A DNA stretch of 63,035 bases, counting the filler, from Asterionella formosa (taxonomy: Eukaryota): assembly GCA_002256025.1 (NCBI GenBank). It is 28 parts of 28 records of this genome, joined end to end, with 100 filler letters (N's around TTAATTAATTAA, not from the genome) between each part and the next. Parts side by side here need not be neighbours in the genome. Positions count along the whole stretch, not along the records: positions 59,728 to 60,763 come from NKIB01004793.1; 27 more parts are not named here. The stretch is one strand, 5' to 3'. This document shows, one piece after another, positions 58,758 through 63,035 of the stretch. The notes beneath the pieces were generated by a model that ran no database searches, was not told the DNA's origin, and saw only the letters and a list, made by a program, of their open reading frames with translations. How positions within the stretch are numbered: position 1 is the first letter of the stretch; each line of letters starts with the position of its first letter. Position numbers and translations under genes: made by a program.

Positions 58758-59606
58758 ATGGCAAACAGAGATCTGTCGGAAGATGAAGTTGCTGACCTCA
58801 AGGAGGCCTTCAGCATGTTCGACATCAATGGAGATGGTGAGATCAATCAAAGAAGAAATGACCTTGGCAAAACAAATGATCGTGATTTCTTTTTCACACC
58901 TTTCCCGTACCTGGTAGTACCATGTGTCTTTGTCTGGCGGTTGTACGCGACCGTCAACAAAGGCAGTGCTGATTCTTCGCATTATGGTGGAGGTGTATTT
59001 TCCCGTGACACCGTGTATGTTCCTGATCATGATGGTGAATCTTCTCGGCCAAGTGACACCCACTTAGTGGAACATCAGCCGTGTATGCATGCATGGAGCA
59101 GAGCCTTGTTTGCAAAAATACTGCTTACGGCGCTTCTAGTTACGTGTCGTTGCGTTGCCATTAGCCGTCGCCTATGATTCTAAATGGCCTTTTCGATCAA
59201 GTCGTTACTTACTCACTGGTTCTATCGCTTCTGTTCGACTCTAGGCACTATTGAACTCCACGAACTTCAACAGGTGATGAAAAAGCTTGGACAAAATCCT
59301 TCTGAAGGGGAATTGATTGAAATGATCAACTCTGTAGATGATAACGGGGACAATGAAATTGACTTTGGAGAATTCCTTGTCCTTATGAAGTCTCGCATTG
59401 GCGAACGCGACCCCGAGAAGGAATTGCGGGACGCCTTTGCCGTATTCGATGCCAATGGAAGTGGTTCCATCGACAGAAGGGAATTGAAGAGACTGATGAA
59501 GAAGCTTGGACAAGCTCTTACCGAGGCAGAACTTGATGCCATGATGGACGAAGTTGATACGAATGGCGATGGAGAGATCAGTTTCGAGGAATTTAAGGCA
59601 ATGATG
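58758..59606 (+). CDS. Calmodulin-like protein with four EF-hands; exons 58758-58836 and 59245-59606, last exon missing
   Basis: LKEAFSMFDINGDG|TIELHEL..LGQNPSE.EL..M..VDDNGDNEIDF..ELRDAFAVFDANGSG..VDTNGDGEISFEEF; GT-AG intron 58837-59244 and donor at 59607. Confidence 0.92.
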
Positions 59607-59969
59607 GTAAGTCTGCTCATAGCCTTTNNNNNNNNNNNNNNNNNNNNNNNNNNNNNNNNNNNNNNNNNNNNTTAATTAATTAANNNNNNNNNNNNNNNNN
59701 NNNNNNNNNNNNNNNNNNNNNNNNNNNAATAATGAAAAATCAATGGCTATCTCTTCAGAACCCTTTAGACAACCGGGAGGGCGATATTCGAACATGATAG
59801 AGGATATTTCTGTAGAACCCTAAAGTCAAGCGGGAAAGTGATCGTCTACCAGAACAGTACGAAATTATCATTTCAATCTAGGTATAGAAGTGGATGTTAC
59901 AAAAAGATGGAATCTTTATTTAATTGTTAGCTGTACAGATGAATTACTTCAATCGTATTTGCACACGTT

Positions 59970-60536
59970 TTAAAGTCCACTAAGGTATCCACCGAATGCA
60001 CCGCGAGAAGGAGCAGGAGCCTTGGCGAAGACAGGAGTAGTATGGACCTTTCCTGGTAACGAACTGAGGTAGCTAGCACCGAAGGTAGGTCCGGTAGCAA
60101 CAGGGGATGCAACAGAAGGTGTTGGTGTAACCGTCACGACAGGAGAACTGAAGGTCTTTCCTGGCAGGGAGCTGAGGTACGAAGAACCAAAGCCAGAAAC
60201 CGCAACAACAGTTGGTGCTGGCTTGACAGCAATATCAGGAGTAGAATGGATTTTTCCAGGCAACGAACTAAGATAGTTGGCACCAAAGCCGGCCCCACTG
60301 GAAGGGGCAGGGGTTGCTGCGACAACCGGAGTGGTGAAGGTCTTTCCTGGCAAGGAACTGAGGTAGCCTGCTCCAAAGCCAGATGCACTACCAGAACTCG
60401 CGACAGGTGTTGGTGCAGGAGCAGTGAAAATTGGAACGGTGAAGGTCTTACCGGGCAGACCATTCAGATATTTACCAACCTGCAAGGCAGACGTGGCCAT
60501 AGGGAGGAGAAAGACAAGGGCGATGGAAGTTTTCAT
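59970..60536 (-). CDS. 188-aa signal-peptide protein with six (F)G..YLxxL(PGK) repeats in P/A/S/T/V-rich spacers
   Basis: Complete ORF starting MKTSIALVFLLPMATSA-L; repeats keep the peptide while varying codons. Confidence 0.88.
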   Translation of the reverse strand: MKTSIALVFLLPMATSALQVGKYLNGLPGKTFTVPIFTAPAPTPVASSGSASGFGAGYLSSLPGKTFTTPVVAATPAPSSGAGFGANYLSSLPGKIHSTPDIAVKPAPTVVAVSGFGSSYLSSLPGKTFSSPVVTVTPTPSVASPVATGPTFGASYLSSLPGKVHTTPVFAKAPAPSRGAFGGYLSGL

Positions 60537-60863
60537 TGTTGTATTTTGTTCTTTTCAATACCACCGGTATTTGCTTATTAATCTCAGTTTGTGAGCAGAC
60601 TGTGGAGGAGGAACACATTTTCTTACCGCACCTACCGGCATTCGTCCACGTTGGTGACGTCAAGCTGCAGGAACTCAAAGTTACACTGGGACGACACATT
60701 TCGCCAATTCAGTACCATCACGCGTTCCCGGAAGCTCTTGTGCTTCGTGGGTTTCTTTTGACCNNNNNNNNNNNNNNNNNNNNNNNNNNNNNNNNNNNNN
60801 NNNNNNNTTAATTAATTAANNNNNNNNNNNNNNNNNNNNNNNNNNNNNNNNNNNNNNNNNNNN

Positions 60864-61191: not shown

Positions 61192-61899
61192 CATATGTCT
61201 ATGACTGCTGCTAGTAGCAGCAGTCATAGACATATGTATATGGTGTTCTATTTATACAATCCTAAAACTATGATGATTTACTATGGTGTTCTATTGCTTG
61301 CTTATTACTCCGACTACCGGTTCCGCTTTTCAGTTTCACGATCATACAATCCTAAAACTATGATTTACTGTCCCACTGTAATTGCAACAAACATGAACAT
61401 ATGGTGTTCTATTTGTTTTTAGTTTTACGATTATACAATCCTAAAACTATGATGATTTACTGTCCCACTGAAATTGCAACAGTCATGAACATATGGTGTT
61501 CTATTTGTTTTTAGTTTTATGATCATACGATCCTAAAACTATGATCGTTTACTGTCCCACTGCAGCAGCAACAGTCATGAACATATGGTGTTCTTTTGGA
61601 TCATAATTTTACGATCATACGATCCTAAAACTATGATCGTTTACTGTCCCACTGCAGTAGCAACAGTCCTGAACATATGGTGTTCTGTTGCTAGTTTACC
61701 GGCACTACTCCGGCTACCCCCAGCCAGCCAGTATATCACTTACTACCTGCTGCTGGTACCCTGTATGTATAAATGATACATTGTTATTGTCATATGATGT
61801 ACCGGTACACATGAAGAGCTCCCGCCCAAAAAAGGGGCTTAAACAATTTGCTACCAAAACCCTTGCGGCATTTGAACGGTCTAAATAATTAGTTTCAAC
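61192..61899 (-). mobile_element. Family A left-internal ~90-bp repeat array preceded by a perfect hairpin
   Basis: atcctaaaactatgat..ttactgtcccactg..catatggtgttct about x4-5; reverse complement of ~46585-47075. Confidence 0.85.
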
Positions 61900-61999: not shown

Positions 62000-63035
62000 C
62001 AGGAGACGCTGCTCCGATCAACGGATTGGCAGCTTCGTTTGCCAGGTTACCATTGCCTCACAGCAATGGGGGACCTGACAGCGTCGCAGCGAGGTGTGGC
62101 AATACTGGTGTCGACCAAATTCAACTGTACCCCAGTTGGTAAGGCCACACCATTTTGGACTTTTGCGAGAGTCTATGGGGCCACCCTCTTGAGGCCTATT
62201 CTCGTGGGAACAATTTATGTCCCATGCAGAGCGGATCGCATCCGAGTGCTCAGGGCCCTGCCCCGAGCCTTGGACGCTCTGCATCGGGAGTTTCCAGAAG
62301 ATCCCATTGTGATGATGGGAGACTTCAACATGAAGATGACGGAGTTGCAGATTCTGATGGGACCGTGGCGGCTTCCCTTTCGGGTGTTACCCATCCGAGG
62401 GGGGGCCTCCACTCGCCAAAGCCGGCGGGAGGGACAGCCAACACCTGCCATTGATTTCATCACATATTGTGGTGACACAGTGGCGGCTGTCCCCCCTGCC
62501 AGGGTCCTCGACACATGGGATATTTCGGACCACTTCCCAGTTGTTGCGGACCTACCTGGGCTTACCAGAATCCCAGAGATGGGGATTGCCCCACCACGGC
62601 CGGAATCACTGTACCGGCGGATTGTGATGGAAGAGAAGGAACTCAAAGTAACCGTGGCTAGTAGTAACTATTGGCAGCCACTAGCTGACTCGCTGGAGGA
62701 GGACCTGGAGGATGTAATCGAGTGTTCAAATTCACTTGAAAACCCCACCAGTTACCACCAGGAAAGGTTGGATGGTATGGCCAAGAAGTTCACTACAACA
62801 TGTCACCAGGTGGCAGAGGACCTGAACCTCCACCAACGGGTGGCGGGACAAAACCCACCAAGAGTGACAGGACAGGTACGTCGGGCGATTGAGACCCGAA
62901 GGAGGATCTTCCGGGAAACCCGGAGGGCGGAGTCGCGAGGAGACCGTGAAGATGTAGCACGGCTTGGGGACATGTACAAGGCTGCCAAAGAGAGGGCGCG
63001 GAAGGTGATCCGCCTCTCGGGTAGGCGGGCATGGT
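62000..63035 (+). mobile_element. Non-LTR retrotransposon ORF2 APE domain and linker (second copy, open frame across the contig)
   Basis: QETLLRSTDW..GDFN..SDHFPV..; about 4 substitutions seen against the overlapping part of 22502-23539. Confidence 0.92.

Follow-up and report, generated by a model that had tools for sequence, protein, structure and literature searches.

A candidate pyrenoid-matrix scaffold of Asterionella formosa built from YLxxL motifs of the type found in the DPC2 family

What might be the function of a small protein that consists largely of regularly spaced YLxxL motifs behind a signal peptide, and could it be a scaffold of the diatom pyrenoid? The question is raised by a gene of Asterionella formosa located in the window analysed here, i.e. 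the whole stretch of 63,035 nucleotides, which is composed of unrelated contigs joined by N spacers, such that sequences adjoining in the window do not necessarily adjoin in the genome. The gene lies alone on its contig and is organized as follows (positions are those of the window).

59728..60763, contig carrying the gene (G000:C4793), 1,036 bases
59970..60536, minus strand, single-exon CDS, 188 aa plus stop
60537..60559, minus strand, short 5' untranslated stretch; RNA contig ends from two studies lie at 60559
59897..59969, minus strand, 3' untranslated region, with non-genomic poly(A) at about 59897-59901

The adjoining contig, which is unrelated, carries a calmodulin-like EF-hand gene (58758-59627, plus strand; identified by Pfam), apparently with an intron. 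Elsewhere in the window, imperfect tandem repeats of about 90 bases each were seen by eye at 61200-61700, and an open frame with an exonuclease/endonuclease/phosphatase domain (62066-63034, plus strand) probably belongs to a non-LTR retroelement.

The gene is real and transcribed. RNA contigs from all four runs examined are colinear with the CDS and show neither joints, gaps nor indels, indicating that there is no intron and no hidden upstream exon. Because the RNA data of all four runs are contigs, the ends at 60559 give a weak hint of a transcript start near this position, 23 bases before the ATG, and RNA depth was not used for ranking expression. Poly(A) was found in the RNA of one run, and the DNA at this site contains no T run, so the tail is non-genomic. 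Sequencing runs from 15 studies, mostly of lake or fresh-water samples, contain the stretch. Two further copies, which are 93 and 90% identical to the gene, were identified on other contigs of this genome, and the reading frame is intact in all three (187-188 aa). Compared with the copy on contig C1280, 42 codons differ synonymously and 18 non-synonymously; the gene is under purifying selection.

The encoded protein has a size of 17 kDa and contains the following features.

60486..60536, minus strand, signal peptide, residues 1-17, ending T-S-A (cleavage site assigned by eye)
60441..60485, minus strand, first 15 residues after cleavage, with Leu at +1, no acidic and two basic residues, overlapping motif 1
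60432..60470, minus strand, motif 1 (YLNGL with PGK extension)
60327..60365, minus strand, motif 2 (YLSSL with PGK extension)
60237..60275, minus strand, motif 3
60141..60179, minus strand, motif 4
60033..60071, minus strand, motif 5
59973..59987, minus strand, motif 6 (YLSGL), at the very C-terminus, as in all-repeat relatives

The tyrosines of the six motifs are located at residues 23, 58, 88, 120, 156, and 184, i.e. 35, 30, 32, 36, and 28 residues apart (about 32), and are the only six tyrosines in the protein. The highest YLxxL count reached in 100,000 shuffles was 2. The preliminary description of this DNA had reported at 59970-60536 a protein with a signal peptide cleaved near ATSA-L and YLxxL motifs about 25-40 aa apart; translation, the RNA contigs, and the copies bear out the frame, the cleavage site agrees with ours (by eye), and the repeats are confirmed by the motif and shuffle counts, at a spacing of 28-36 residues. 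Two further points of that description require modification. The motif was described as a YLxxL sticker, and six copies are indeed present, but the conserved unit is longer, reading YLxxLPGKx[FH][ST]xP in five of the six copies, with a G/F-rich lead-in before it. The spacers were described as basic and almost free of acidic residues; the 171 residues after cleavage do contain a single acidic residue along with nine basic ones (pI about 10.0), but the PGK of the motif accounts, with its K, for five of the nine, so the spacers are mostly neutral. P, A, S, T, and G make up 63% of the mature part, and the protein contains no tryptophan, cysteine, or N-glycosylation site; judged from composition alone, the chain is probably mostly disordered. 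A Pfam match to Mig-6 (E 0.008) was below the cut-off and was rejected as compositional, and an Atlas match (0.76) was below the useful range.

The most hydrophobic 19-residue window of the protein begins at residue 3. The accessible part of the ASAFind 2 report (PMC12136025) gives as features of plastid proteins an accepted residue at +1 (Leu included), an acid-free segment of 15 residues after cleavage, and no charge on the first three of these. When these features were applied manually with the cleavage site assigned by eye, the signal peptide, the Leu at +1, and the acid-free first 15 residues were all found, and the first three residues after cleavage are uncharged. Motif 1 begins only about five or six residues past the cleavage site, and a separate transit peptide is absent from all three short copies, and the RNA reveals no missing exon. 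In most relatives, the residue at +1 (again with cleavage by eye) is F or L, and a basic stretch of about 20-25 residues devoid of acidic ones separates the signal peptide from the first motif; five relatives with a full transit-like segment begin with LQ, the same as the 188-aa protein. The first 15 mature residues, overlapping motif 1, may double as a transit peptide. Motif 1 would then fall within the segment that is likely removed on plastid import. From these features, import into the plastid, with the transit-peptide role taken by the first repeat, appears likelier than secretion.

The motif is shared by a whole family in this genome. In addition to the three forms of 187-188 aa with six motifs each, there are two longer forms (about 300 aa, nine motifs each), possibly alleles, and a giant repeat gene (L074:656-4216, contig C15153) of about 1,150 codons. 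Its 17 + 8 motifs are interrupted by a single in-frame TAA and by an N gap, and its C-terminal end is a transmembrane-like helix (hydropathy 2.2). The TAA may be an assembly error or represent a null allele. In three proteins, 2, 8, and about 19 motifs precede a domain that has a hydrophobic segment rich in glycine and is predicted to form helices; such fused motif-domain forms are located on contigs C15153 and C13133. Four motif proteins with predicted membrane segments were found in all, plus longer all-repeat proteins, and most motif proteins of this genome have plastid-type leaders. Three of the motif genes lie in tandem on contig C15153, and no recognisable CO2-concentrating gene was present among the 21 frames scanned as neighbours of the paralogues. 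The C-terminal domain of the paralogues gave only weak Pfam matches and no PDB sequence match, and two AlphaFold2 models of it were poor (mean pLDDT 36 and 41). This domain also exists without motifs, as a protein of about 220 aa with a canonical ASAFAP plastid leader in this genome (L176:1489-2154; G000:C5239) and in other diatoms, and the Atlas places the domain of one paralogue among Bacillariophyta.

Outside this genome, the extended motif is rare: sequence and profile searches yielded 4, 5, and 14 matches, plus 2 metagenome loci, where the set of 14 includes P0046, a false match that has no such motif and was discarded, and P0044, which was not read. One metagenome relative (L171:47-1942) is an all-repeat protein of 632 aa with 18 motifs, indicating a wide range of valency within the family. 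The otherwise dissimilar proteins P0042, P0043, and P0047 contain looser repeats of the YLxxL type. Judging from the sequences retrieved, the extended repeat looks lineage-restricted and the core motif is more widespread. When this genome was scanned with a loose DNA pattern of the motif, 81 matches were obtained, compared with 77 for a control, and no new multi-motif protein was found at the loci read (30 of the 81 and selected stretches). P0001, a public 129-aa protein, resembles the 188-aa protein in its N-terminal part and the nine-motif paralogue in its C-terminal part and is either a recombinant gene or a chimeric assembly.

The preliminary description had regarded the motif as different from those of known pyrenoid proteins, and this does not hold, as members of the DPC2 family carry a YLxxL-type motif. 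DPC2 is diatom pyrenoid component 2 of Thalassiosira pseudonana; in the sections available of the preprint by Nam et al. (bioRxiv 10.1101/2023.10.26.564148), it is described as confined to the pyrenoid matrix, as co-purifying with Rubisco, and as a network hub. According to the same sections, T. pseudonana yielded no analogue of EPYC1 or PYCO1, the mechanism of Rubisco condensation in diatoms without PYCO1 is stated to be unknown, and DPC2 is a prime candidate, with no motif assigned to it. Three of the four nearest relatives of the 188-aa protein (45-51% identical to it) match Pfam DPC2 (PF25195) in their motif-bearing stretches, with E values of 3e-10 to 8e-12 and 41-46 bits, which are below the curated cut-off of 70 bits. 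The 188-aa protein itself does not match this model up to E 10, and the best match in this genome reached 22.8 bits against the same cut-off.

Among the proteins obtained with a profile of the family was P0009, which scores 313 bits as a full DPC2 member and contains 24 motifs of the consensus [GA]-[IVF]-[GA]-[SN]-YL-D-[SA]-[LVI]. The link to the T. pseudonana protein is drawn via the Pfam model. In a Pfam scan of 15 proteins, DPC2 was the top match in 14, the exception being the motif-less P0046. By BLAST, P0009 matched P0003 with E 2e-10 and the 188-aa protein weakly (25 bits, E 0.001); as a query, it gave no match in this genome. PDB searches with the family profile and with P0009 returned chance matches only (heliorhodopsin, E 0.024). 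To avoid circularity, a flank-only profile was built from P0009, in which the six residues before each motif were scored while the cores were kept fixed and the spacers were shuffled. With this profile, for which a single DPC2 member with internal duplication was used and two registers were permitted, 9 of 20,000 shuffles reached the score of the 188-aa protein, and none of 20,000 reached the scores of P0003 and P0004. Together with the column counts, this test indicates that a G-rich-YLxx[LIV] repeat such as that of P0009 is present in the 188-aa protein. Within the literature searched, which did not extend to subscription papers or preprint supplements, no paper was found that describes the motif or the family, or what the motif of DPC2 binds, and DPC2 was found together with Thalassiosira in one paper only.

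The occurrence of the motif in DPC2-family members and the plastid-type leaders seen in the paralogues support the multivalent plastid scaffold proposed in the preliminary description, though not as one whose motif is new to pyrenoid proteins. We consider the chance about even that the protein is a plastid, multivalent scaffold of the pyrenoid matrix. As such, it would be a soluble, mostly disordered protein imported via the ER into the plastid stroma, in which the six G-rich-YLxxL motifs of the DPC2-family type would act as weak stickers. Each sticker would probably fold as a short amphipathic helix against a partner in the pyrenoid matrix that offers a hydrophobic pocket; Rubisco, or a protein bound to it, is the most likely partner. 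With six stickers about 32 residues apart, one chain could bridge several partners and contribute to condensing or organizing the matrix. Paralogues with the motif ahead of a membrane segment would, by analogy with Chlamydomonas, tether the matrix to thylakoid membranes. Direct binding and linking of Rubisco is the more doubtful part of this proposal and is in our estimate rather unlikely; a complex prediction of RbcL and RbcS with residues 50-100, run without alignments or folded controls, gave a score of 0.01 and a mark of 0.34 and is uninformative either way. By analogy, one may also speculate that G-rich-YLxxL is the shared Rubisco-binding and pyrenoid-addressing motif of diatoms, a red-lineage counterpart of the Chlamydomonas motif, with DPC2 and the all-repeat proteins as PYCO1-independent linkers and the membrane paralogues as tethers to the thylakoid that crosses the pyrenoid, although we regard this broader picture as unlikely. 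If the protein does bind Rubisco, this would explain DPC2 and provide a candidate linker, candidate membrane tethers, and a small part for pyrenoid engineering.

A plastid protein with this motif need not cross-link the pyrenoid matrix. The motif might bind membranes as an amphipathic helix, bind itself, or bind a non-pyrenoid plastid complex, and the protein might coat or space thylakoids or serve as a stress protectant. The motif is indeed carried by three proteins with glycine-rich hydrophobic segments and one ending in a transmembrane-like helix, and because looser repeats occur in several dissimilar proteins (P0042, P0043, and P0047), it may be general rather than pyrenoid-specific. We nevertheless consider such a role unlikely, since DPC2, the sole characterized protein behind the matching Pfam family, is described as located solely in the pyrenoid matrix in the part of its report available, and since a proline directly follows the motif in five of the six copies, such that the helix would probably span less than two turns, a small size for anchoring in a membrane.

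Doubt about the compartment itself arises from the position of motif 1, five residues after the signal peptide, and from the missing transit peptide in all three copies. The short form might have been re-routed by loss of this peptide and be a wall, mucilage, or adhesive glycoprotein rich in P, S, T, A, and G that is secreted or kept in the ER or the periplastid space. The composition of the mature part and a Leu at +1, where Phe is usual, are in keeping with this. KxxK and RxL motifs, cysteine-rich domains, or GDPH are hallmarks of silaffin/cingulin, frustulin, or GDPH adhesive proteins. The protein contains no KxxK, RxL, GDPH, cysteine, or N-glycosylation site, its Leu at +1 is accepted by ASAFind, the charge pattern of its first 15 residues is that of plastid proteins as far as the ASAFind text available describes them, and the LQ start is also that of the five relatives with a full transit-like segment. 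The secreted wall or adhesive role that had been named as the alternative is thus weakened, is kept alive by the absent transit peptide, and appears improbable. The idea that repeats in the family expanded and contracted and left this gene behind, truncated and without function, is very improbable: repeat numbers vary, P0001 looks like a hybrid, and the giant paralogue has an in-frame stop, but the frame is intact in every copy, synonymous changes exceed non-synonymous ones, and the stretch recurs in the runs of the 15 studies, with poly(A) in one.

The pyrenoid-scaffold reading invites comparison with known linkers. PYCO1 of Phaeodactylum tricornutum is likewise a diatom tandem-repeat protein with aromatic stickers, which in the available portion of its report (PMC10288592) comprise KWSPR (small subunit), GTGYNP (homotypic), and EW[GA]SM (large-subunit helix). 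KWSP, GTGYNP, and EW[GA]S are all absent from the 188-aa protein, which contains no tryptophan, and PYCO1 is far longer, at 592 or more residues in the text available. The plastid rbcL-rbcS pair is present in the assembly, the best PDB matches of the small subunit include 5MZ2, given as Thalassiosira Rubisco in the same portion of PMC10288592, and all ten PYCO1-contact residues checked are kept in the Rubisco of this genome. A public contig labelled as a Clostridia bin (L090) contains an rbcL 94% identical to that of this diatom and is probably plastid DNA binned with a bacterium. In this genome assembly, the KWSPR-type pattern matched at 87 scattered places and nowhere in tandem, and GTGYNP gave no match; a single AEWASM match, obtained by searching for AEW[GA]SM, falls within a frame of 72 residues whose opposite strand carries a long ORF and was dismissed as chance. 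A PYCO1-type linker is not evident in this genome, but as the assembly is fragmented, the absence of its stickers is weak evidence.

With EPYC1 of Chlamydomonas and CsLinker of Chlorella, set beside the protein here by their descriptions in the accessible parts of PMC11570498 and PMC13159521, it shares the sticker-and-spacer design. In Chlamydomonas, as described there, one motif is common to EPYC1 and the membrane- or sheath-linking RBMP1/2 and SAGA, and in A. formosa one motif is likewise found in soluble proteins and proteins with membrane segments. The motif itself differs, however, as does the Rubisco, which is of the red type (Form ID), and binding, which was demonstrated for the green linkers, is a proposal by analogy here. 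The spacing of 28-36 residues lies within the 20-120 residues used as a linker search criterion in the part of PMC11570498 available but is half the approximately 60 residues expected between linker repeats by Nam et al. (10.1101/2023.10.26.564148, sections available).

The closest resemblance is to DPC2, with which the protein shares a repeated G-rich-[SNG]-YLxx[LIV] motif, a low-complexity A/S/G/P chain, and an N-terminal targeting leader. The two differ in that the motif is mostly YLSSL here and YLDSL or YLDAL in DPC2, that the PGKx[FH][ST]xP extension is absent from the DPC2 member examined (P0009), that the motifs are spaced by about 32 residues here and about 21 in DPC2, and that the chain is basic here and acidic in DPC2; the 188-aa protein also lacks the cysteine-containing segments of P0009 and a separate transit peptide. 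By the tests run, the protein is neither PYCO1 nor a Pfam-DPC2 member and would rather be a related variant. Consisting of almost nothing but DPC2-type motifs, it would serve as a clean reagent in the search for binding partners of the motif, and through the link to DPC2, what seemed a look-alike becomes a specific test of Rubisco condensation in diatoms that lack PYCO1.
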